A stretch of 64,000 nt of DNA. Source: Turneriella sp. (lineage in GTDB: Bacteria; Spirochaetota; Leptospiria; Turneriellales; Turneriellaceae). Below the pieces are notes generated by a model. The model saw only the letters and a list, made by a program, of their open reading frames with translations. It was not told the DNA's origin and did no database searches. Of the stretch, positions 1,618 through 17,053 are shown in pieces; position 1 is the first letter of the stretch; the number at the start of each line of letters is the position of its first letter. The position numbers and the translations under genes were made by a program. The stretch spans positions 2,016,001 to 2,080,000 of the forward strand of contig CBDIID010000003.1 of the NCBI GenBank assembly GCA_965279515.1, in the 5' to 3' direction.

Positions 1618-2532
1618 GTGCCGCTCAGCGACGCCACCAAGGATATTCTCTCTTTCGGCGCGCATAGCCGTGTCGAAGACAAACGTGCTGAGCTTGTTGG
1701 GTTGCACGATAAACTCAGCGCAGTTTTGGCTGAACGCGATGCGGCGATCGCGCAGGCAAACACGGCGACCCAGCACCTGATCGTCGCCAAGACCCACGCG
1801 GTGGATATCCTGCGTGGTATCAGCAATATCTCAAAACATCTCAAGGCTGCCGACCGCAGTTTCAGTGAACAAAATGCCGCGATGCTGCCCGGGCCTGTGT
1901 TAGCGCGGGTTGAGGCGGTTTTGGGCGAAAGTGAAATTTTCGCCAATGCAAAAAAAGGCATGGCGGCGGGCGCATCGCTGGCGCTCGGCACCTGGGCACT
2001 CGCAGGAACAGCCGGCATCACCAGCGCGGGTGCGGCGCTCAGCGCATCGACCGCAGCGTTCGCTGGCGTAGGCGGTGCTTCGCTGATAGCAGGCGGCGCG
2101 GCTGCCGGGACATTGGCTTTAGGCAGTCTCGTACTTTTACCGGCGGCTGCGATTCTCGCGATCTTCAGCCATAACAGCGCCGACAAGAAAATACGCGAGA
2201 TCGAAACGGAGATTAGCAAGGCCCTCATCGCCATTGAAGAAAGCCGCGGCGCGCTGCTTTCGGTGAATCATCTCGAACGCCGCGCCGCAGAGATAACCCA
2301 GGCCATCGGAAAAACGGCCGCGGTCTTTGAGGCGGAAAAACAGAAATGCCTCGAGCGAATTTATCCCTTTGGAATATTTTCCCGTATGCTGAAAAACATC
2401 CGCAAGTTTCTGGGCGGCAATTTTTTCTCGAAATACGATCTCGTTATGCTGATGCCGCTCCTCAATATGGCGAGAATACTTGCTGAGCTGATCGACCAGA
2501 AGATTCTGGACGAGGAAGGCAACCTGAAATGA
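1618..2532 (+). CDS. Hypothetical coiled-coil protein with a central Gly/Ala-rich hydrophobic hairpin
   Basis: 304-aa ORF with a GTG start 3 nt after the previous stop. About 70 aa of Gly/Ala-rich hydrophobic sequence flanked by amphipathic helices. Confidence 0.75.
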   Translation: MPLSDATKDILSFGAHSRVEDKRAELVGLHDKLSAVLAERDAAIAQANTATQHLIVAKTHAVDILRGISNISKHLKAADRSFSEQNAAMLPGPVLARVEAVLGESEIFANAKKGMAAGASLALGTWALAGTAGITSAGAALSASTAAFAGVGGASLIAGGAAAGTLALGSLVLLPAAAILAIFSHNSADKKIREIETEISKALIAIEESRGALLSVNHLERRAAEITQAIGKTAAVFEAEKQKCLERIYPFGIFSRMLKNIRKFLGGNFFSKYDLVMLMPLLNMARILAELIDQKILDEEGNLK

Positions 2533-2927: not shown

Positions 2928-4336
2928 GAAAGTTCCTGCTGATTCTGATACCTGTATTGTCACTCATCGCCGTGAAATCTCAGGCCGAGCGCATCACCGA
3001 ATACCTGCAGGCGCAGGATTGGGCATCAGCAAACCGCGAGCTTACGGATTATCTTGCGCAAAATCCCGATAAAGCCTGGGCTTATTCTTCCCAGGCATGG
3101 GCACTAGAAAACCTGAAGCGCTACGATGAAGCCGTATCGCTCGCGCGCGCAGGTCTCGACAAATGGCCCACCGAGACGAAACTGCGTACTGCGCTGGGCC
3201 GCCTGCTCATCAAAAAGGCGGAAACTGTCTCCGCTGAAAATGCGCTTCCCTTGTTGAAAGAAGCGGTAGAGATCGACCCGCGCGAATATACCGCCTTTTC
3301 TCTCGCGCGCGCCTACCGCAATGCCGGAAATTTTGCAGAGGCGCTTCTACACATGGAAAAGGGCCTTGTCCAATATCCCGATTCGGCTAACTTTCGCGAA
3401 GGACTGCCGTTCACGCGCTACCAGTATTTCAAAGACCTGCGCACAAGGGGAGACAAGACCGGCATGCGCGCGCAGATCGAAAAAGCGCATAAACAGCTCA
3501 TCGCTGGCAGAACCTATGACCAGTATTATTATAAGTTGATTCTGCGTTTTGGCCTCAGGGAACTCGGCGACCGGAGTTTTTTCCAGACCACGTATGATAA
3601 TCTGCTGGCGGTTTATCCCGAAGAGCCGGCGCTCTATGACGATTACGGATTTCAGCTCTACGCGAATTACAGGCTTCATGACAAAGCGGATAAACAGCTC
3701 AGGGATACTGCAATCTCGTGGCGGCGCAAGGCCTATGAGCTTTACTGGAAAAACCGCGAGCTGCCGAAACCTGTCACAGGCCTCGCCTTTCCCTTAAAAG
3801 GCAGAAACATGATTTGGAGTGCATTCGGCGGCAGCGCGATGACGCACAATGGATTTTCACAGTATTGTTATGATTTTGCGGCAGTCGATGCGCAGCGCAA
3901 CATCGCGAAACCCGGTAGCAAGAAAAAGCGGAACTCCGATTATTTTATGTTTGGCAAACCCGCGTACGCCGTAGCCGACGGGGTGGTTTCAGGTACGATC
4001 ACCGGCTTTCCGGATAATGAACCGGGCGCCTTCAGCGGCGACGCCAATACAATCACCATCCGGCATAAGGGATTTCTTTCTTTCTATGCACACATAAAAG
4101 ACAAGGGAATTCTGGTGCGCGAAGGGCAAAAGGTCCGCAAAGGCGATTTGTTAGGCTATGTCGGAAACAGCGGCATGTCGACCGAATCGCATCTGCATTT
4201 CTGCATCAACGCCGACAACGCGGACGACATCACCATCCCGTTTCAATTCGTGCCGGCGGCGATCGAGAAAAAGGACGGCAAAACAATACGCAGCAGCGAT
4301 TTCTACAAAGAAGACGACGTCGTTATCTTTGAATAA
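2924..4336 (+). CDS. Secreted TPR-repeat M23-family metallopeptidase
   Basis: Signal peptide, TPR-like helices, C-terminal M23 domain (YAH...VGNSGMST ESHLHF, HxH motif). Confidence 0.85.
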   Translation: MRKFLLILIPVLSLIAVKSQAERITEYLQAQDWASANRELTDYLAQNPDKAWAYSSQAWALENLKRYDEAVSLARAGLDKWPTETKLRTALGRLLIKKAETVSAENALPLLKEAVEIDPREYTAFSLARAYRNAGNFAEALLHMEKGLVQYPDSANFREGLPFTRYQYFKDLRTRGDKTGMRAQIEKAHKQLIAGRTYDQYYYKLILRFGLRELGDRSFFQTTYDNLLAVYPEEPALYDDYGFQLYANYRLHDKADKQLRDTAISWRRKAYELYWKNRELPKPVTGLAFPLKGRNMIWSAFGGSAMTHNGFSQYCYDFAAVDAQRNIAKPGSKKKRNSDYFMFGKPAYAVADGVVSGTITGFPDNEPGAFSGDANTITIRHKGFLSFYAHIKDKGILVREGQKVRKGDLLGYVGNSGMSTESHLHFCINADNADDITIPFQFVPAAIEKKDGKTIRSSDFYKEDDVVIFE

Positions 4337-4343
4337 ACGGCTC

Positions 4344-4405
4344 AGCCTATCTCAGTAGCCATTCGGCATGGCGTTTTTTCGTACCGCGGCCTACTGAGAT
4401 AGGCT
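4344..4405. repeat. 15-bp perfect inverted repeat with 32-nt spacer (MITE-like element or bidirectional terminator)
   Basis: AGCCTATCTCAGTAG at 4344-4358 and CTACTGAGATAGGCT at 4391-4405, between convergent genes. Confidence 0.75.
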
Positions 4406-4406
4406 T

Positions 4407-7400
4407 TTAATCCAAATAGGGCCTCAGCCAACGCTCGGCTTCTTCGATCGACATGCCTTTGCGTTTTGCATAATCTTCAAGCTGGTCGCGGTCGATCTTG
4501 CCCACAGCGAAATATTTCGATTCAGGATGAGCAAAGTACAGACCGCTTACCGATGAAGGCGGCGTCATCGCAAAATTTTCGGTGAGCTTGATGCCGGTGT
4601 TTTTCTCCACCGACAACCAGTTGAAAAGGGTCGTTTTCTCCGTATGGTCGGGTGATGCCGGGTAACCCGGCGCGGGACGTATACCGAGATACTCTTCTTT
4701 AATAAGCCCCTCGATATCGAGCTTCTCATCGGCTGCATAACCCCAGGTCAGCTTGCGCACAGTCTCATGCGCATATTCGGCAAAAGCTTCTGCAAAACGA
4801 TCAGCGATAGCTTTCACCATAATGGCCGAATAGTCGTCGTTTTGTTTTTCAAAACGCGCGGCGTATTCCCCCGCCCCGTCGCCGGCAGTTACGGCAAAGC
4901 CACCGATATAGTCGTGTTCACCGATGAAGTCGGCGAGCGAATAATACACCTGTTCGTTTTCTTTCTTTTTCTGTTGCCGCAGAAAGTGCAGCTTATGGAT
5001 GACTTTGTCGCGGTTTTCGTCGGCATAGACAAGCACATCGTCACCGTCGCGTTTTGCCGGAAAGATCCCGACGACGCCGCGCGGCTGAAAGGGTTTGTCT
5101 TTCAGAATCATGTCGAGAATCTTCTGGCCGTCGTGGAAAAGTTTCCGTGCTTCAACGCCGACCACTTCATCGTCGAGAATGCGCGGGTAACGGCCGCGGA
5201 GTTCCCATGCCATAAAGAACGGCGACCAGTCGATGTAAGGCACGAGGTCACCCAGGCGCACTTTATCGAGCAAAGTAATGCCCAGCTTATTGGGAAGTTT
5301 CACAGGAGCAGGTTTCAGCTGCGGAGCCTTGGCAATGGCATCGGGGTATGACAAGAACGCGCGGTCCTTTTTGCCGCTGAGGTAATCCTCACGCAGCTTG
5401 GTCTGCGCGAGCGTGAGTTCTTTCACATAATTGCCGCGCATGTCTTCGCTGAGCAGTTTGCCGAGCACGCCTGTTACCAGCGAAGCGTCGGGTACGTGCA
5501 CGACAGGGTTTTCATACGACGGCACAATCTTGACCGCAGTGTGAGCGGCCGACGTTGTGGCGCCGCCGATCAGCAGCGGTTGTGTAAATCCGCCTTTTTT
5601 CATTTCGCTCGCGACATAGACCATCTCGTCGAGTGACGGCGTGATGAGGCCAGACAGGCCAATGACATCGGCATTGATCTCTTTCGCCATTGCGAGAATT
5701 TTATCGCAGGGCACCATGACCCCCATATCAATGACTTCGTAGTTATTGCAGCTGAGTACCACACCGACAATGTTCTTGCCGATATCGTGCACGTCGCCCT
5801 TGACCGTGGCCATGAGCACCTTCGTGCGCGCTGAAGATTCACCCATGTCAGCTTTCTCCTGCTCCATAAATGGAAGAAGATAGGCGACGGCCTTTTTCAT
5901 GACGCGCGCCGATTTGACGACCTGCGGCAAAAACATCTTGCCCGCGCCGAAAAGCTCGCCGACCACACGCATGCCGCCCATGAGCGGCCCTTCGATGACA
6001 CGAAGCGTGGGGGAATATCTCTTGCGCAGTTCTTCGACGTCCTGTTCGACGAACTGGTCGATGCCTTTGACGAGGGCATGTTTGATGCGCTCTTCCGCGG
6101 TATTCTCGCGCCAGGTGAGATCTTCTTTGATCTGCTCTTTGCCGCCGCTCTTATATTTTTCGGCGATATTCAGCATGCGCTCCGTCGCGTCGGGGCGGCG
6201 GTTCAAAATAATATCTTCGACATGCTCCTTGAGTTCAGGCGGAATGTCTTCGTAGACGGCGAGCATACCCGCATTGACGATACCCATATCGAGACCAGCC
6301 TTGATCGCATGGAACAGGAACACCGAGTGGATCGCTTCACGCACAGCGTTATTGCCGCGAAATGAAAACGATACGTTACTCACGCCACCCGAAACCAGTG
6401 CCCCTGGGCACACTTGTTTGATGCGGCGTGTCGCATTGATGAAGTCGAGAGCATAGTTGTTGTGCTCTTCGATACCCGTCGCGACAGTCAGAATGTTGGG
6501 GTCGAAAATGATATCGCTGGGGTTGACATGCGCCTTTTGCGTCAGCAGATCATAGGCCCGCTTGCAGATGCGCACCTTGTCTTCTTCCGTCGCCGCCTGG
6601 CCCTGCTCATCGAAGGCCATGACGACCATGGCAAAACCGTGCTCTTTAACGATGCGGGCCTGATCTAAAAACTTCTCTTCGCCTTCTTTAAGGCTGATCG
6701 AATTGACGATACCCTTGCCCTGCACACACTTGAGGCCCGCATAGATCACCGACCACTTCGACGAGTCGATCATGATCGGTACGCGCGCGATATCGGGCTC
6801 AGAGGCGATGAGGTTCATGAAACGTGTCATCGACGCTTCACCGTCGAGCAGGGCTTCATCGAAATTGACGTCGATAATGTTGGCGCCGGCAATGACCTGC
6901 TGGCGCGCGACTTCGAGCGCCTGGTCGAATTTGTCTTCGAGAATGAGTTTTTTGAACTTAGGCGAACCCGTCACATTTGTCCGCTCGCCGACCATAAGAA
7001 AACCAGTCGCGCCCGTGACATCGAGCGGCTCGAGGCCCGCGAGATGCAGTCCCTGCGGCTTCCCGAGCCCGGCAGGAATCACGCGCGGCTTTTCAACGGC
7101 GACACGTTTCACCATCTCTTTGATATGATCGGGCGTCGTACCGCAGCAGCCGCCCGCAATGTTGAGCATCCCCTCCTTTGCAAAAACAGCAAGGTCTGAC
7201 GCGAACATCGCCGGTGTTTCGTCGTAACCGCCGAAGGCATTGGGCAGCCCCGCGTTGGGGTAACAGGAAATCATCACATCGGAAACACGCGACAAGGCTG
7301 CGAGGTGCGGCTTCATGTCTTTCGCACCGAGTGCGCAGTTGATACCGATCGAAAGCGGGTTCGCATGGCGCACGGAATTAAAAAACGCTTCGGCAGTCTG

Positions 7401-9978: not shown

Positions 9979-11691
9979 ATGCGGATTTCGATCGTGCTCT
10001 CGGTGTCTTTGGTGCTGCTCCTGGAATGCCGCAGCTGGGGTAAGTTCTGGCAGGCACCAACATTCAGTGATTTTGCCCCGGCCGTGAGTACGAACTATAC
10101 CGTGCGCAGCGGCTTTCTTGTCGGCAACGTGACCAACGGTGATGGCGCAGAGGGTATTGAGATCGCCTATGACTCCACTGACGACTTCAAGGCAGGCACG
10201 GGATTTCCCGCATTCAAGGTACCATTGCCGACAGGCTCGTCAACCTGGCGCCTCGACAGCCGGCATAAAATCTTCTTACGGCTGAGGTATCCGAACAACG
10301 GCTACTCCGACACCGCCGCGTATACCGTGCGCAAGGGTAATAACCGCGACATCAACGGTGACGGGTATCCTGATTTAGTCGTGGGAGCAGATCAATACAA
10401 TAACAATAACACGGGTCGCGCATATATATTCTTATCCCGGGGTAAAACCGGAATCGCAACTCAAAACGCGGCAGCAGCAAATGCCATAATAACAGGCGAA
10501 AACACCAACCATCAATTTGGGGTTAGTCTTACGCTCGACGATCTCAACGGGGACGGTTATGCGGATCTGGTCGCCGGTGCGTATCAATACAATGCCGGTC
10601 AGGGGAGAGTCTATGCCTTTCACTCGAATGGCATATCGGGCATTGCGACCCAAAGCGCCGCCTCGGCAAACACCAAGATAGACGGCCGTGTTGGAGTAAA
10701 CTGCAATCTGGGTTTTTCTGTCGCAGCGGGAGATATTAACGGCGATGGGTATGCGGATATTGTAGCAGGTGCCTACACTGACGATTATGTAGGACTTGCA
10801 GCAAATAGCGGTCACACATATATCTTTCATTCTTCTGGAAATTCCGGAATTACCATCACTTCTGCTCCGGCCGCGACTACAGATATTAGCGGAGAAAATA
10901 ACGGTTCGAAATTTGGTACGTCAGTCGCTGTCGGAGATTTTAATGCTGACGGCTTTGCCGACCTGGTTGTCGGTGCTCCGTTTTATACATCTAATACCGG
11001 TAGGGTATTTTTATTCAACGGAGCTGCCAACGGTATCACAAGCCAGACTGCTTCACCCGCGCAAAGCATTGCGGGCACGGCAACTTTGATATCGATCGGC
11101 AACTCGGTTGCCACCGGAGATTTTAACGGCGACGGCTATGCCGATATCGCGACCGGGGCGCACGGAACCGCTCCAACGAATACTGGCGCTGCTTTTCTTT
11201 TCCTGTCAAAGCCAAATTTTACCACGGGAGGCTCGATTACAACAACCTCGGCAAATTTCGCCATTAGCGGCCAGGCCACAAGCGATGCTTTTGGTTTTTC
11301 GGTTGCATTCGGCGACATGAATGGAGATGGAAAGCATGACTTATTCGCTCACGCACAGCAGGTAAGCGGCACCAGCCGGGGATATGTTTTTCATTCCCAA
11401 AACGGCGGCATTGCCGGCTCCAATGCCGGCATTGCCAATACCATTATATCCGGTGAGGGAACCCCTGATTTCCTGGGAGCCTTTTCTGGCTCATACGACA
11501 TCAATGCGGACGGCTACGACGACTTGCTCCTCGGCGCACATCAGTACTCAACAGGCGGTAACACAGGTCGCGTGTATATTTTTCTGTCTCCGGGAAACGG
11601 CGGCGTTATTGGTGGTGCCGCCACAAACGCGAATGCAATAATTACCGGAGAAGCAGCGAACAACCGCTTCGGTCGCTCGATGCCCTATTAG
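9979..11691 (+). CDS. FG-GAP (integrin-alpha-like beta-propeller) repeat lipoprotein
   Basis: Seven DxNxDGxxD Ca-binding repeats with FG...GA motifs. Signal peptide ending in LLLEC-RSWGKFW. Confidence 0.9.
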   Translation: MRISIVLSVSLVLLLECRSWGKFWQAPTFSDFAPAVSTNYTVRSGFLVGNVTNGDGAEGIEIAYDSTDDFKAGTGFPAFKVPLPTGSSTWRLDSRHKIFLRLRYPNNGYSDTAAYTVRKGNNRDINGDGYPDLVVGADQYNNNNTGRAYIFLSRGKTGIATQNAAAANAIITGENTNHQFGVSLTLDDLNGDGYADLVAGAYQYNAGQGRVYAFHSNGISGIATQSAASANTKIDGRVGVNCNLGFSVAAGDINGDGYADIVAGAYTDDYVGLAANSGHTYIFHSSGNSGITITSAPAATTDISGENNGSKFGTSVAVGDFNADGFADLVVGAPFYTSNTGRVFLFNGAANGITSQTASPAQSIAGTATLISIGNSVATGDFNGDGYADIATGAHGTAPTNTGAAFLFLSKPNFTTGGSITTTSANFAISGQATSDAFGFSVAFGDMNGDGKHDLFAHAQQVSGTSRGYVFHSQNGGIAGSNAGIANTIISGEGTPDFLGAFSGSYDINADGYDDLLLGAHQYSTGGNTGRVYIFLSPGNGGVIGGAATNANAIITGEAANNRFGRSMPY

Positions 11692-11692
11692 G

Positions 11693-12988
11693 CTATTTTC
11701 TCAAAATCACGTAAAAGTGCGCCCGGCCACGCAGCACGTGCACGAGGTGGGTTGGCTTGTCTACCGTGAACGCCGCCTTCGCCGCGTCGAGTGTATTGAT
11801 CGGCTTACCATCTGCCTCAAGCACAATGTCGCCGAGATTGAGCCCCGCATGCTGTGCCGAGCTGCCCGAATCGATGAAGCTGATGTAGGCGCCCTGCTTC
11901 TGGTCAAGCTGGTAGCGCTCGGCAAGATCATCGGTAACTTCCATGATCACAAAGCCCAGCGGTGATTGCCACTTCTTGCCTTCGACGGGCGGGCGCTCTT
12001 TGACGAGACCCGCGATCTCCTGCGTTTTGCCGCCTCTGAGGATTTCAAGTTTCACATCTTTGCCGATCGGCAGGTCAGACATTTTGCGTATAATCGGGTG
12101 CACGTCTTTTTCTTCGACCGCACTCACCGCCTCGCCATTCACGCGCATGACCACATCAAGCGGTTTCAGCTTGCCGTAAAAATTCGAGGATTTCAGTACC
12201 AGCGAAACCATGACGCCGCCGGTGTTGTTGATCCCCAGTTGCTTGCGCAATTCGAAATCGAGCGGCATGAGCTGAATGCCGAGAAAACCCCGCTTGATAC
12301 CGCCGGACTTCAAGAGCTTGTCTTTGACCTCGAGCGCGGTCTCAATCGGAATCGTGAATGCCAACCCCGAACCGCCGCGCGAATTGATACCGATGACTTC
12401 GCCGCGCATATTGAGGAGCGGTCCGCCGGAGGAACCCGGTGCGATAAATGCATCCGTTTGAATAAAATCATTGAGCACCGGCGCCTGCGGCACGTTGCGC
12501 CCTTTCGCGGAAACGATACCGAAACTCACAGTACGGTCGAGACCATAGGGATTGCCCACCGCAAGCACCCACTGCCCCACCTTGGTGGTTTTGCTGCTGC
12601 CGAGCGTCACAGGCCGCAGATTTTTTGCCAGCGCGGCGTCGACCTGAATCAGCGCGACATCGGTCGGCTCGTCGGAACCCAGAACTTTGGCCTCGTATTC
12701 GCGCGGGTCGTTATTGAATTTCACCAGGACTTTCACGTTGTTGTCAATAACGTGGTGGTTCGTCAGAATCATGCCGTTCTTATCGATGACAAAACCGGAG
12801 CCCATGCCGCTGAACTTCTTGTTGTTCACGCTGCCCTCAACCTTGATATGCACGACGCTGTTCGTAATCTCTTCGCTGACCTGCGTGATGTGATTCTCGA
12901 GCTTCTCGAGGTCGGCGGGTAACGGGGTTGCCAGAAGGGCCGTCGCAAAGGCAAAAATCAGGGGGATGGCTTTCGGTACGGAAATCAT
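11693..12988 (-). CDS. htrA: HtrA/DegP-family trypsin-like serine protease with two PDZ domains
   Basis: GSGF, TNHHV, DVAL, QTDA..PGSSGGPL, two PDZ domains. Signal peptide from ATG 12988. Confidence 0.9.
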   Translation of the reverse strand: MISVPKAIPLIFAFATALLATPLPADLEKLENHITQVSEEITNSVVHIKVEGSVNNKKFSGMGSGFVIDKNGMILTNHHVIDNNVKVLVKFNNDPREYEAKVLGSDEPTDVALIQVDAALAKNLRPVTLGSSKTTKVGQWVLAVGNPYGLDRTVSFGIVSAKGRNVPQAPVLNDFIQTDAFIAPGSSGGPLLNMRGEVIGINSRGGSGLAFTIPIETALEVKDKLLKSGGIKRGFLGIQLMPLDFELRKQLGINNTGGVMVSLVLKSSNFYGKLKPLDVVMRVNGEAVSAVEEKDVHPIIRKMSDLPIGKDVKLEILRGGKTQEIAGLVKERPPVEGKKWQSPLGFVIMEVTDDLAERYQLDQKQGAYISFIDSGSSAQHAGLNLGDIVLEADGKPINTLDAAKAAFTVDKPTHLVHVLRGRAHFYVILRK

Positions 12989-13007
12989 TCTCTCTGCGAT
13001 GTAAATC

Positions 13008-13892
13008 TCACCGTCGGCGTAAACTGCGATTCTGCCAGTAACGGCTGAGCAGTACCGTGACGATGAGCCCCAGAAAAACCAGCGCTGACCCGGCACGCTG
13101 ATAAGCAGACAGGTGTTCGTCCAAAAAGAAAGCATTGCTGGCAAGACCATAGATCGGTACGAGTGTGGCAAACGGCATCACGCGGCTGGCGGGAAATTTC
13201 AGCATCACGGTGCTAAAAAGCGTAAATGAAAGATGGGTCGCGAGGTAGGCCATAAAGAGCAACGACAGCCAGGAGCGCAGCGAGCTGTGCGTGATTTGGG
13301 TCACGATCGACTGCGGCCCGTCGACCACCAGCGCGAGGGCAACGAGCGGTACCGCGGAGATAAAACTCGTCCAGGCGATAAAGCCGGCGAAGTCTGAAAT
13401 TTTGAAAGACTTGATCAGCGTGTTGCCGAATGACCAGAACAGCGCCGAGAGTAAAATAAGGCCAAAGGCAAAAAATTCGGCGCCGAGCATGTATTCATAG
13501 CCAATCACGATAAGGCCAATCGCCGAAAGCAGAAATCCCATGATCTGAAAAAATGTGACCTTCTCGCGGTAAAAGACCCAGGCTAAGAAAATCGTGATAT
13601 AGACCTGAAACTGTATGAGCACCGAGCTCAACCCAGCGGGCAGTTTATAGTGGATTGCGAGAAACATCAGGCCATACTGCAGCACGCCGATCGAAAAACT
13701 ATAAACGACAAGGCGGGCAAATGGAACCGGTGGGCGCCTGTAGATAAGTACCAGCGGAAAACCCGCAATGGCAAAACGGATAGCGACTAAGGTAAAGGGA
13801 GAAAACGATTCGAGACCGAGCTTAATCGCAACAAAGCTGAGACCCCAGAACACCGGAGGCAGCAAAACATAGAGGTAATCTTTAGGTGACAA
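13008..13892 (-). CDS. EamA/DMT-family transporter
   Basis: About 10 TM segments, WGLSFVAIK N-terminus, duplicated EamA architecture. Confidence 0.88.
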   Translation of the reverse strand: MSPKDYLYVLLPPVFWGLSFVAIKLGLESFSPFTLVAIRFAIAGFPLVLIYRRPPVPFARLVVYSFSIGVLQYGLMFLAIHYKLPAGLSSVLIQFQVYITIFLAWVFYREKVTFFQIMGFLLSAIGLIVIGYEYMLGAEFFAFGLILLSALFWSFGNTLIKSFKISDFAGFIAWTSFISAVPLVALALVVDGPQSIVTQITHSSLRSWLSLLFMAYLATHLSFTLFSTVMLKFPASRVMPFATLVPIYGLASNAFFLDEHLSAYQRAGSALVFLGLIVTVLLSRYWQNRSLRRR

Positions 13893-13898
13893 AAGAAT

Positions 13899-13919
13899 GC
13901 AGGGTGTGTAACACCCTGC
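13899..13919 (-). terminator. Rho-independent terminator after the Cys-rich gene
   Basis: GCAGGGTGT-3nt-ACACCCTGC 9-bp stem followed by ATTCTTTT on the minus strand. Confidence 0.7.
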
Positions 13920-13937
13920 GGAAACCTTATTGAGCTG

Positions 13938-14255
13938 TCAGGTTGCGCCCTGCGGTTTCGTTTCAGCCGTTTTATCTTTCGGCTTCTTCATGTCGCAGTG
14001 GCCTTTTTTGCATTTGCCGGATTCACAGTTCTTTTTGCATTTTTCGTCTTTGCAATCTTTACAGCAATCCTTCGACATCTTTTTGTCGTCGCAGCAATCA
14101 TGCTTACCATCTTTCTGCTTGCAGTCTTTGCAGCATTCTTTCTGGTCGCAACAGTCTTCGTGACCACCTTTGTGGCCGTCATGCTGATCGGCAAAAACAA
14201 GGTTGGCGGGCAGCACAAAGGCCGCCACAGCAAGTAAATTTAATAATAATTTCAT
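13938..14255 (-). CDS. Exported Cys/His/Lys-rich metallothionein-like protein
   Basis: GGAGG SD, Sec-type signal peptide (..VFA|D), His-rich stretch, then 14 Cys in CC and CxxC/CxxxC arrangement. Confidence 0.8.
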   Translation of the reverse strand: MKLLLNLLAVAAFVLPANLVFADQHDGHKGGHEDCCDQKECCKDCKQKDGKHDCCDDKKMSKDCCKDCKDEKCKKNCESGKCKKGHCDMKKPKDKTAETKPQGAT

Positions 14256-14303
14256 AGATCCTCCGTAGTATTTTTAATGATGAGCCTTAAGGCTCGCGCG
14301 GTA

Positions 14304-14675
14304 TCAGCTGCGCCGCGGCGGAGGTAGTGACGGTAAAATGGTGAGTGAGGTGAATGGAACTTCTTCGTTTTGTAATACGACGCTGGCGACTGCCGGCGGC
14401 ATCATGACAATAAGCGCCTCGATATGCGCGGGGTTAAAACAGTGCAGGTTGCAGCAGGGTTTTTCGCTTTTTTTCTGCTCTTTGTTTCCGTGGTTTTTAT
14501 GCGCCGGTTTCGCGTGGCAGGACTTCTTTGCTGCCTGGGCAGTTTCGGCGCCTGCCGCGCAAGGGTAAAGGTTCACACCGCCAAACACGAAGATGCCGGT
14601 GACGGAACATAGGGAAAAAACCTTAACCCACGGCTTCACTGTCAGAAACCTAATAAATCCGACCGGGGCTGGCAA
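14304..14675 (-). CDS. CutF/CruR (DUF2946)-like leader protein
   Basis: Hydrophobic N-terminus, CH..H..H linker, CCxxxC motif, about 38-aa spacer, C-terminal LPPPRRS. Start may be GTG 14639. Confidence 0.6.
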   Translation of the reverse strand: MPAPVGFIRFLTVKPWVKVFSLCSVTGIFVFGGVNLYPCAAGAETAQAAKKSCHAKPAHKNHGNKEQKKSEKPCCNLHCFNPAHIEALIVMMPPAVASVVLQNEEVPFTSLTILPSLPPPRRS

Positions 14676-14687
14676 TATATTTACCGG

Positions 14688-15206
14688 TCATTTTTTCTTT
14701 GCTGCCGCTTTTTTCGCAGGTTTGACCTTCGCCGCCGGGGCGGCTTTTTTCGTCGCAACCTTTACCAGCGGCTTTAGCGGGGGCGCCCCGGGTTTGGGGG
14801 GGGCTTTTTTCATCGGCGTCACGGTGCGCGGTGGTTTAACGACGAGCTTCTTTTTCGGTGGCCGTGCTGGCTGTACCTTGTTGTACTCGAGAGTTTTATC
14901 GATCCAGAACTGAAGATCAGCTTCATTCGTATAACCTTCGGCATGGATAAAGACAAAACCCGTCATGGGTTTTCCGACGAAGTCCATCTCGCGTACGCCG
15001 GCGCGTTTTAAGGCCTCGTCGTGGAAGCCGGGACCTACGCGCGCCATGAGACGGTCTTCGCCACTGATTTTGTCGCGGCTGATACCGACGCACATCTTCT
15101 CATCGACCATGAAGGCGACACCGCCAAACATCGGCTTTTCGATGAAGGTCGCCTGCGGCGTAAGGAGCTTTCTGATCCGTACGGCCAACTCTTCGCTATA
15201 TGACAC
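14688..15206 (-). CDS. TfoX/Sxy N-terminal-domain protein with Lys/Ala/Pro-rich tail
   Basis: EKPMFGG..FMV..KM, LMARVG, MDF.GKPMTGFV motifs. Histone-H1-like KKAAPAAK tail. Confidence 0.82.
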   Translation of the reverse strand: MSYSEELAVRIRKLLTPQATFIEKPMFGGVAFMVDEKMCVGISRDKISGEDRLMARVGPGFHDEALKRAGVREMDFVGKPMTGFVFIHAEGYTNEADLQFWIDKTLEYNKVQPARPPKKKLVVKPPRTVTPMKKAPPKPGAPPLKPLVKVATKKAAPAAKVKPAKKAAAKKK

Positions 15207-15294
15207 AGGTTACTTGATAAGGTGGAGTGACCTTGGCAACGGCCTTTCTTGTTTACATTCAGGAGGCCCGATAAGTGTGGTACTCGTTATTTGC

Positions 15295-15888
15295 ATGCAG
15301 GCGCCTAATATCACAAATCTGCCTTTTCTCCTGTGGGTCGCGCGAAGCGATACCTGGCAGGTCACCGAATGCAGCAATGCACTTCTGCAGGCCTGCGCTT
15401 ACGCCGATGCATCCCCGGTTGGCGGACCGCTTTCGGCCCTGATCGGCACCCGTGGTGCCGATGAAGTAAAAAACTGGTCTGACCTTCAGAACGGCACGGA
15501 TTCACCGCTGCAACTGCGCGCGACGATCCACATGCAGGCCGGCACCGTGTTCAGCGCCGCGGTCAGCGTCGCCCGGATCAAAAACTCTGAACCGGCTAGC
15601 CTGGCATTTTTTGCACTGGCAGATACTCGCGTTGCGGCAGCTGAGCCTCAAATCGCGACGGCGACGGCCGACCAGGCAAAATTCGACGCGCTCGCGATTA
15701 TCGCGCAGGGCATGGGACATGAAATCAATAACCCACTGCAGATTATCCTGGGAAATGCAGAGTACCTGCTCACGCTGAACAAGGATGCTGCGCTCTCGTC
15801 GGCACTGCAGGATATTCTCTCAGCCGGAGAGCGCATCAAATCTGCCGTCGCTAATTTAAAGGATTTTGTGCGAACAGAGGAAAAGTAA
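15295..15888 (+). CDS. PAS-like plus HisKA (DHp) protein lacking an ATPase domain
   Basis: GMGHEINNPL H-box. The ORF stops right after the second DHp helix. Confidence 0.72.
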   Translation: MQAPNITNLPFLLWVARSDTWQVTECSNALLQACAYADASPVGGPLSALIGTRGADEVKNWSDLQNGTDSPLQLRATIHMQAGTVFSAAVSVARIKNSEPASLAFFALADTRVAAAEPQIATATADQAKFDALAIIAQGMGHEINNPLQIILGNAEYLLTLNKDAALSSALQDILSAGERIKSAVANLKDFVRTEEK

Positions 15889-15892
15889 TACC

Positions 15893-17053
15893 ATGATCGT
15901 AGTCACCTCAGAGATGCTGGCGGCAAAAATCCGCCCCGCCGCCGAGCTGCTGGGCATAGAGGTCGGTATTGCGACCTCCGCCGGTGCAGTCATGGCCCTG
16001 AACCCCCAGGTCGTCGTAACCGAAGCGGGAAATCCCACCGAACTCAATATCCTCTATAAAATCCGCGAGACAAATCCCACGCTCCCCAGGATCATCGCAT
16101 TTTCCGCGGTGGCGATCCCCATGAATGTCATGATATCGATGCGCCTGGGTCATCGTTTCATCGATCTGAAAGAGGACGCGGCAGCACTCGCCTCTGTCAT
16201 CGGCGATGCGATCAGGCTGACTGGATATTTTATGTCAGAGGACATCCAGAAGTATGTGCGCAATCTTGCGTTTTTACCGCGCCTGCCCGACCTCTACGTG
16301 CGCGTCGAAGAGGCTGTGCATTCGCCGGGCTCTTCGCTCTCGAAAGCCGCCGAGATTATCGGGCACGACCAGACGGTGACGAGCCTCGTGCTGAAGCTCG
16401 TCAACGCAGCTGCCTTTGCCGGTAAAAGACCTGTAACCAAGATCGCTGAAGCCGTAACGCGCATCGGGATTAATAACATCAAGGCCATCATACTCGCAGT
16501 CAGCATTTTTTCCGGCAAGATCGGTTACGGCGGCGGCACGGATTTTAATTCCCTGCACACCCACGCCTTCACTGTCGCGCGCTGCGCGCGACGCATCGCC
16601 GAAAGCGAAGACCTGCCCCCCTGGAGCCAGGATATGATTTTTCTCGCCGGCCTGCTGCACGATATTGGTTCACTGGTGCTCTTAACCTCGGACGGCAAGC
16701 TGTATGAAGACACGCTGGTAAGAGCGCAGACGATGAAACTCAATATGCTCGATCTTGAAAAAGAAGTTTTTGGCGTCGACCATGCCGTGCTGGGCGGCTA
16801 TATCTCACGCCTGTGGGGATTTCCCGATATTATCGCCGAACTCATCATGCACCACCACAGCGCCCCGAAAGAAGACGTGAGCTTTCGTATCATTCAGGCA
16901 GCCGACGCCATGACGCAGAAATTCCTCTACCACGGGCATGGCGAGGCCATACCTATGGCAACCGATGTCAATGAAGAGTGGGTCAAGATCTGCAAACCGA
17001 TTATCCAGGAAGTCGCCGTCGAAAATGCGGCGGCAAATAAGAACAGAAAATAA
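15893..17053 (+). CDS. HDOD-domain protein with degenerate N-terminal receiver
   Basis: LPRLP, LKLVNAA, AGLLHDIG, DHAVLG..WGFP..HH motifs. Confidence 0.88.
   Translation: MIVVTSEMLAAKIRPAAELLGIEVGIATSAGAVMALNPQVVVTEAGNPTELNILYKIRETNPTLPRIIAFSAVAIPMNVMISMRLGHRFIDLKEDAAALASVIGDAIRLTGYFMSEDIQKYVRNLAFLPRLPDLYVRVEEAVHSPGSSLSKAAEIIGHDQTVTSLVLKLVNAAAFAGKRPVTKIAEAVTRIGINNIKAIILAVSIFSGKIGYGGGTDFNSLHTHAFTVARCARRIAESEDLPPWSQDMIFLAGLLHDIGSLVLLTSDGKLYEDTLVRAQTMKLNMLDLEKEVFGVDHAVLGGYISRLWGFPDIIAELIMHHHSAPKEDVSFRIIQAADAMTQKFLYHGHGEAIPMATDVNEEWVKICKPIIQEVAVENAAANKNRK

Follow-up and report, generated by a model that had tools for sequence, protein, structure and literature searches.

The window analysed here, a 64,000-nt stretch of a Turneriella sp. 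genome (contig CBDIID010000003.1, positions 2,016,001 to 2,080,000), holds a unit of approximately 750 nt made up of a promoter, a leader ORF, a gene for a Cys-rich protein (hereafter the target) and a terminator. We here document the anatomy, conservation, linkage and predicted RNA fold of this unit. All of its parts lie on the minus strand, and the leader stop at 14304 is followed after a gap of 48 nt by the target ORF (14255-13938). Its features, in the direction of transcription, are:

14670-14675 (-): -35 hexamer TTGCCA of a putative sigma-70-type promoter; TTGNC is invariant in 7/7 aligned loci
14647-14652 (-): -10 hexamer TAGGTT, spaced 17 nt from the -35 and 7 nt from the start codon
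14304-14639 (-): leader ORF, CutF-type by motif, 111 aa from GTG 14639 (homologues, pN/pS, invariant residues)
14570-14618 (-): putative hydrophobic signal or anchor segment, about residues 8-24 (Kyte-Doolittle, AlphaFold)
14514-14561 (-): putative upstream ligand set C27 and C41-H42; C27 and H42 invariant, C41 in 14/15 sequences
14439-14456 (-): C62-C63-x-x-H66-C67 motif (CxxHC as in CutF); H66 in 14/15 sequences
14313-14324 (-): PPPR, putative arrest motif, with CCT CCG (14324-14319), the first two of its codons, as predicted anti-SD (anti-Shine-Dalgarno sequence)
14297-14317 (-): stem CGCGG (14317-14313) / CCGCG (14301-14297) around the leader TGA (14306-14304), in the MFE structure
14282-14295 (-): intergenic hairpin GAGCC-TTAA-GGCTC (RNAfold)
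14260-14265 (-): Shine-Dalgarno (SD) region CGGAGG(A) of the target gene
13938-14255 (-): target, a predicted exported Cys-rich (metallothionein-like) protein of 105 aa (composition, orthologues, pN/pS)
13899-13919 (-): intrinsic-terminator-like hairpin closing the unit (sequence scan of the window)

The initial annotation had extended the leader to a TTG at 14675, but homologues begin at the position of GTG 14639, and we rejected the TTG as a start codon: its three letters begin a conserved -35 hexamer. A -35 box stands at the equivalent place in 11/11 leader loci, and the fuller pattern (TA...T at 16-18 nt from TTGNCN and 6-8 nt before ATG or GTG) in 10/11, counted on the same loci from which it was derived. 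Its background frequency is 54 in 200,000 random positions, and 24 of 4,424 long ORFs have it upstream. The promoter of L011 has a perfect TTGACA and that of L027 has lost its -10, while a consensus promoter scan missed the one in the window because it scores only 8/12. With the TTG assigned to the -35 box, the mRNA is expected to start 0-2 nt before the leader start codon, and from the geometry generally ascribed to sigma-70 promoters it is probably leaderless or carries a 1-nt leader. The SD before the leader start is weak or absent, and leaderless mRNAs have been described as common in Leptospira interrogans (PMC5243855). No known RNA family or riboswitch matched at E up to 1 within 12800-15400.

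Judged by conservation, leader and target are both true genes, and purifying selection acts on them in Turneriella-like spirochetes. A search of the protein collection gave 8 homologues of the leader (E 3e-57 to 2e-26), and a profile of 15 leader sequences retrieved 7 representatives with E no higher than 1e-10, plus 4 weak matches, of which 2 come from clusters labelled outside spirochetes or unlabelled. The source labels read on homologues are Turneriella sp., Leptospiraceae bacterium and Spirochaetota bacterium, which upholds the assignment of the unit to spirochetes. Against genus-level orthologues pN is 0.22-0.40 and pS 0.66-0.80 for the leader (7 pairs), and 0.16-0.21 and 0.53-0.87 for the target. 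The frames, starts and stops of both ORFs are kept across three genera, and C27, H42, C62, C63, C67, P103, P107 and P108 are invariant in the 15 leader sequences.

The hydrophobic segment of the leader reaches a best 12-residue Kyte-Doolittle mean of 2.2 (1.8-2.8 across 11 loci) and is followed by an A-G-A site. It is also the sole helix in a low-confidence AlphaFold model (pLDDT 57), which is unstructured beyond it. As a lipoprotein site, LYPC was considered and not adopted, given that a Pro before the Cys does not suit the usual lipobox. The CCxxxC motif, the 38-residue spacer and the terminal PPPRRS read in the initial annotation are all present, with P107-P108 invariant in 15/15 sequences. 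From the last Cys of CxxxC to the last Pro-Pro there are 39 residues in 10/11 loci and 38 in one, using a locating pattern that permitted 35-46 residues, whereas the N-terminal linker varies. C27 and C41-H42 precede the last Pro-Pro by 80 and 66 residues, a distance that ranges from 59 to 96 residues among loci.

By motif the leader is CutF-type, because its CxxHC, spacer, PPPR end and two upstream Cys match those of CutF, which has C69xxH72C73 and the end P109EPEGPPPRL118 (PMC8456105) as well as an upstream Cys5 and Cys12 with proposed disulfides (bioRxiv 10.1101/2025.02.05.636593). Like the 118-aa CutF of Rhodobacter capsulatus, the 111-aa leader has a putative N-terminal export signal and a short gap to a downstream gene with a predicted masked SD, and its 39 residues from last Cys to last Pro-Pro compare with 41 in CutF. 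It differs in an extra Cys (CCxxHC) and in having no significant sequence match to DUF2946. Under the rules for CutF-like proteins given in PMC9973294, it is shorter than 150 aa, has Pro-Pro within its last 15 residues and a central Cys/His motif, and is followed on the same strand within 1,000 nt by another gene, here at 48 nt.

It had been proposed that the leader is of a CutF/DUF2946 type. The CutF part of this stands, on the motifs and the CxxHC-39-PP arrangement, but the Pfam DUF2946 model (PF11162, threshold 23.7 bits) has no match to the leader. Among 15 relatives the model reaches 2, with E 0.031 at best, in 20 genomes of the family it finds none at E 0.001, and a profile comparison of the leader with 7 class-level DUF2946 matches gives a probability of 0.5%. 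The motif rule of that family, CxxC and RAPP 45 apart, does not describe the leader either, which has CxxxC and PPPR at 39 residues. DUF2946 membership was rejected on the HMM and profile-comparison results. The nearest language-model neighbours at 0.95-0.96 include a putative DUF2946 cluster, one that is 25% DUF2946 and one that is 61% DUF6660, and nearness to DUF2946-named clusters is treated as a lead from one source. The further description of the unit as an undescribed spirochete version needs qualifying, given that CutF-like proteins, at 5,334 copies with efflux, TonB, PCuAC and HupE neighbours, are already listed in Spirochaetota in PMC9973294, although as scarce.

The target begins with a signal-peptide-like stretch (residues 1-22); the remaining 83 residues include 14 Cys and 5 His, and a terminator-like hairpin comes after the gene, much as first read. 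The same 83 residues hold 22 Lys and 19 Asp/Glu. The mature chain, of which Cys make up 17%, contains a duplicated CC-x(4,8)-CCKDC unit and four CC pairs, is 49% charged (41 residues) and lacks a hydrophobic core. Across orthologues there are 5-11 His, and the Cys count is 14 in 14/15 and 15 in one. No family match was found in Pfam (17 members), NCBIfam or PDB sequences, and no metallothionein family model or solved structure matched the target. Its composition is that of a metallothionein: small, with Cys in CC/CxC/CxxC clusters and few hydrophobic residues. The AlphaFold model is of low confidence (pLDDT 55), and an empty Foldseek search of the PDB carries no weight. From this composition, and from the company that the leader class keeps, we infer that the target binds metal. 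Of 190 genomes of the class, 10 have the target, and these belong to three genera of the same family as the window; language-model matches in Acidobacteriota (0.85) are a lead only.

Like bacterial metallothioneins, the target is small, Cys-rich and His-containing and has no hydrophobic core. SmtA/BmtA and MymT differ from the target in that they are not known to carry a signal peptide and that their regulation is transcriptional, and PmtA is reportedly a further bacterial metallothionein (PMC11237414). The copper storage proteins Csp1/2/3 and NGO1701 share with the target many Cys and CxxC/CxxxC spacing; Csp1/2 are exported, and some copper storage members are periplasmic. These proteins are four-helix bundles, to which the target has no sequence or structure match.

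VKOR, DsbA-family and DsbD-family genes are present in the genome, and DsbB had no match there. With VKOR and DsbA-family genes at hand the exported Cys pairs may be disulfides, and the target may be a disulfide-rich product. VKOR and DsbA-family domains also occur together in one 497-codon frame (G000:C3:824,527-825,648(+)).

We compared 15 distinct loci with readable upstream DNA, drawn from 10 genome loci, 9 metagenome loci and one further record after merging near-duplicates (L017 with L009, L021 with L013, L024 with L023, L025 with L015) and leaving out L028, which is cut inside the gene. Conservation of the leader upstream of target homologues, as initially expected, holds for 10/15 loci, where it lies directly upstream, and fails for five without a leader. 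The leader profile matches 7/20 genomes of the family, each time abutting the target, and none of the other 13; since six of the seven were already in the profile, the informative part is the absence of matches elsewhere, including three genomes with the target. Repeated loss of the leader is likely, since both other genera have it and 3 changes are needed on the tree, which is weakly supported.

The leader-target gap is 42-161 nt across the 10 loci and 42-59 nt in 8/10. G+C-rich hairpins, read by eye, lie 3' of the target in 8/10 leader-bearing loci, the exceptions being L012 and L027. Flanking genes vary among loci; tfoX, eamA and an htrA-like gene are changing neighbours and were excluded from the unit, and no copper gene was found among the neighbours in any locus read. 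The tfoX gene in the window (14688-15206(-)) encodes a TfoX_N protein whose C-terminal tail is long, histone-like and rich in Lys, Ala and Pro. In the window, L007 and L020 the unit follows immediately on tfoX, giving the order tfoX-leader-target in the window. In L009 and L022, which have no leader, the next gene after tfoX is the target itself.

On the RNA level, CCTCCG (14324-14319, Pro106-Pro107), CGGAGG (14265-14260) and the two small stems were found where they had been described. The suggestion that the stems bring anti-SD and SD together is borne out by prediction: a three-way junction of the Pro-codon/SD helix and the two stems is both the RNAfold MFE and the centroid structure (-23.9 kcal/mol, z -1.97), with a stability reached by 5/200 shuffles. 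Stems across or just 3' of the leader stop, differing in sequence, are also predicted in L007, L020 and L023; the stem of the intergenic hairpin recurs, with another loop, only in L007 and L020. In the MFE structures of 7/10 orthologous loci the SD pairs with the leader Pro tail. RNAalifold, run on 8 of the 10 loci (L010 and L011 were omitted for long gaps), finds a CC.CC/GGAGG helix unprompted, with its free sixth pair kept in 7/8 as G-C, G-U, A-U or U-A and the A-U pair that makes CCUCC perfect in 3/8 aligned rows. GGAGG precedes the target in 9/10 leader-bearing loci versus 1/5 leader-less loci.

With the leader tail held single-stranded, as by a modelled ribosome, opening the SD is predicted to cost 0.75 instead of 8.06 kcal/mol; 3/110 control genes show a drop this large. 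As a set the 10 orthologues drop more than the controls (p 0.012, overstated given that the sequences are related). Absolute SD masking is exceeded by 14/110 controls and is not significantly higher across the 10 leader loci (p 0.10). The opening cost barely changes in L012 and L027. In L010 (genome G011, leader 1986-2336(-)) it rises from 3.3 to 8.1 kcal/mol with the ribosome, the opposite polarity; this locus has a 161-nt strongly folded gap whose intergenic anti-SD is held by the last codons of the leader, and closing of the SD is the predicted effect of a stalled ribosome. An inversion of polarity at L010 is possible on these models.

The exact complement between Pro codons and SD, to which the initial annotation drew attention, is there in the sequence. 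As evidence it is weak by itself, because Pro codons (CCN) resemble an anti-SD, and synonymous recoding of the leader tail masks the SD at least as strongly in 16/60 cases (29/150 with a longer window). Across the 10 loci, tests for codon-level selection gave Fisher p values of 0.20 and 0.61, and the covariation score between anti-SD and SD is borderline, being reached by 30/500 shuffles. Codon-level selection for an anti-SD is hence unsupported by the recoding and covariation tests, and the exact complement in the window is not evidence for function. The helix may nevertheless be real and used without such selection, because Pro codons are natural partners of GGAGG.

Our preferred reading, to which we assign a probability of roughly 55%, is that a metal, probably Cu(I), prolongs a stall at PPP, which frees the SD of the gene for an exported metal buffer with 14 Cys. 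Export of the leader, stalling, the metal and the polarity are here argued by analogy with CutF. The leader would be translated from a near-leaderless mRNA and exported co-translationally. Without metal the ribosome would pass PPP, helped by EF-P, for which the genome has a gene, and by the pulling force, and terminate; the Pro codons would then re-pair with the downstream SD and keep the target low. A thiophilic metal, most likely Cu(I), would bind Cys and His of the nascent chain and lengthen the pause at PPP. The paused ribosome would sit on the anti-SD and free the SD 60 nt downstream, because its footprint on P106-P108 takes in the anti-SD and leaves approximately 40 nt up to the SD. The exported 14-Cys protein would then be made and would buffer or store metal in the periplasm. 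Considering the lengths of the ribosomal tunnel and the translocon, a CxxHC approximately 40 residues from the arrest site would be too close to be periplasmic at the stall, and the conserved Cys 66 and 80 residues away are candidate reporters of periplasmic metal.

The predicted release of an SD by a stalled ribosome recalls the arrest peptides SecM, MifM and VemP, where a stalled ribosome opens the structure hiding the next SD. Those peptides respond to translocation force, carry no Cys motif and act on Sec/YidC genes. CruR of Bordetella pertussis (DUF2946, PF11162) follows a similar plan: an upstream ORF, exported in CruR and putatively so here, whose Cys motif keeps a set distance to a Pro-Pro arrest motif, with control of the next gene in cis. 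CruR differs in having CxxC-45-RAPP, a 162-nt gap, Rho-dependent termination and an operon turned off by Cu, where the leader has CxxHC-39-PP and a 48-nt gap. In cutFOG, an intergenic stem-loop still represses with cutF deleted (PMC9973294); the anti-SD predicted here lies instead in the Pro codons, on an mRNA that is probably leaderless. The CutF target is a Tat multicopper oxidase, unlike the small Sec-type Cys-rich protein of the present unit.

In CruR, with CxxC and RAPP 45 apart, metal relieves a default stall (PMC9426467), and the unit could work with the same sign, making the target a scavenger or chaperone under metal limitation; alternatively the ligand could be Zn, Cd, Ni or Hg. We regard this as unlikely. 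Other leaders in the genome precede uptake-type genes (MbnP/MbnH, TonB receptor), and L010 models with inverse polarity. However, the leader motif is the CxxHC/PPPR of CutF and not the CxxC/RAPP of CruR, the gap in 8/10 loci is far from the 162 nt of CruR, and a sponge-like product suits induction by excess.

Somewhat less probable is plain translational coupling or a secreted partner, in which any ribosome finishing the leader melts the helix, CCN codons give rise to the SD pairing incidentally, and the leader product acts in the periplasm as a metal-binding partner rather than a sensor. The non-significant recoding and covariation tests, SD masking within the range of the genome and the persistence of the target without a leader in 5/15 loci all fit this explanation. 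It leaves the strict CxxHC-to-PP spacing and the terminal PPP without obvious use to a free protein, the leader model is unstructured beyond the signal helix, and CutF itself is described as inactive in trans (PMC9973294).

A monitor of redox state or secretion, with the leader reading Cys oxidation or Sec pulling speed and the target acting as a disulfide-bonded secreted protein or thiol buffer, seems improbable to us. It would draw on the even Cys counts (14 or 12) with CC pairs lost together, on the VKOR, DsbA and DsbD families in the genome, on a thioredoxin-like gene 3' of the target in L014 and on a 2025 CutF model that invokes disulfides (bioRxiv 10.1101/2025.02.05.636593). However, high charge, the lack of a hydrophobic core and 5-11 His suit a metal-thiolate protein, the predicted fold of the target is of low confidence, and the leader class is tied to metal genes (PMC9973294). 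That one or both ORFs are untranslated is very improbable, since the near-saturated synonymous sites with low pN in both, the kept frames, starts and stops and a promoter placed for leaderless initiation outweigh the poor SD before the leader and a language-model recognition score of the target of 2084, under the usual 2300.

Building on metal-prolonged stalling, a bolder proposal can be put forward, tentatively and with real doubt. The unit would be a transcription-factor-free periplasmic metal thermostat, in which a leaderless nascent-chain sensor uses its Pro codons both as arrest signal and as anti-SD and turns on an undescribed exported metallothionein. Any Pro-Pro run half-matches GGAGG, and poly-Pro arrest motifs would therefore carry a built-in anti-SD. 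Leaders could then come to stand before new targets with few changes in the RNA, which would account for the genome having five to seven of them.

Metal-sensing leaders dissected so far comprise only CutF and CruR, which act in opposite directions, and the 750-nt unit offers a compact third test case from another phylum. Natural variants are at hand in the leader-less orthologues, the one orthologue predicted to switch oppositely and sister leaders before uptake or efflux genes. Hence, it can be asked what sets polarity, and how a Cys motif 40 residues from the arrest reports periplasmic metal. If the target binds metal, it represents an exported bacterial metallothionein-like family not found in the literature searched. 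That literature, which covers few subscription papers, likewise holds no leader-controlled exported metallothionein, and the terms 'metallothionein', 'Turneriella' and 'leptospir' are absent from the main text of PMC9973294 and from the supplements examined of PMC9973294 and PMC8456105.

Six further candidate Pro-tailed leaders were found in the genome, five of them before MbnP/MbnH, TonB-receptor, cytochrome or RND genes. Such repeated use of leaders, mostly on metal genes, raises the prior for the present unit. Four of the candidates form one group approximately 35-45 kb before the window:

L018 (G000:C3:1,966,000-1,985,999), 4251-4673(-), 10746-11156(-), 14175-14642(-) and 15956-16327(+): four leader-like ORFs

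Each has a hydrophobic start, CxC motifs and a PPPR end, and they head an outer-membrane/MbnP/MbnH block, a tandem-MbnP/MbnH block, two cytochrome c genes and a TonB receptor. Their SDs are predicted to be masked by the leader ends, with opening costs that fall under the ribosome model from 5.2 to 3.5, 6.8 to 1.8, 4.2 to 3.0 and 6.9 to 1.1. This leader family occurs in 15/190 genomes, including 13/13 of the genus. Homology to the leader in the window was rejected: only the last 30 residues align, at a probability of 4.6%, and the L018 leaders are therefore a separate family of the same design.

Two of the candidates lie elsewhere. In L072, a His-rich ORF with a RAPPVA end (4111-4653(-), G000:C3:1,598,110-1,598,652) lies 58 nt before an AcrB/CusA-family RND gene. 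In L073, an ORF that begins with a hydrophobic stretch, has two Cys and ends in RAPPAL (3967-4413(-), G000:C3:1,218,466-1,218,912) lies 102 nt before a gene for the inorganic-carbon transporter DabA and is a possible arrest leader on a target outside metal homeostasis. Around G000:C3:1,614,300-1,614,700(-), in L019, a Cys-rich ORF whose start is hydrophobic and whose end lacks PP precedes a small lipoprotein-like ORF with CPMH and CPQCGM motifs and resembles the PP-less CzcI type (PMC9973294). DUF2946-like leaders with RAPP or RGPP are found before MbnP-like and transporter-like ORFs in L037-L042, from another family of the class; L036 is unlike these and may be a foreign contig. Finally, paralogous secreted four-Cys peptides with the pattern PDPKKKK.GEECK..DECQ.HH.C...GVC and Pro-rich tails are encoded at G000:C3:629,772-631,063, 2,764,268-2,764,708 and 3,737,175-3,737,456.
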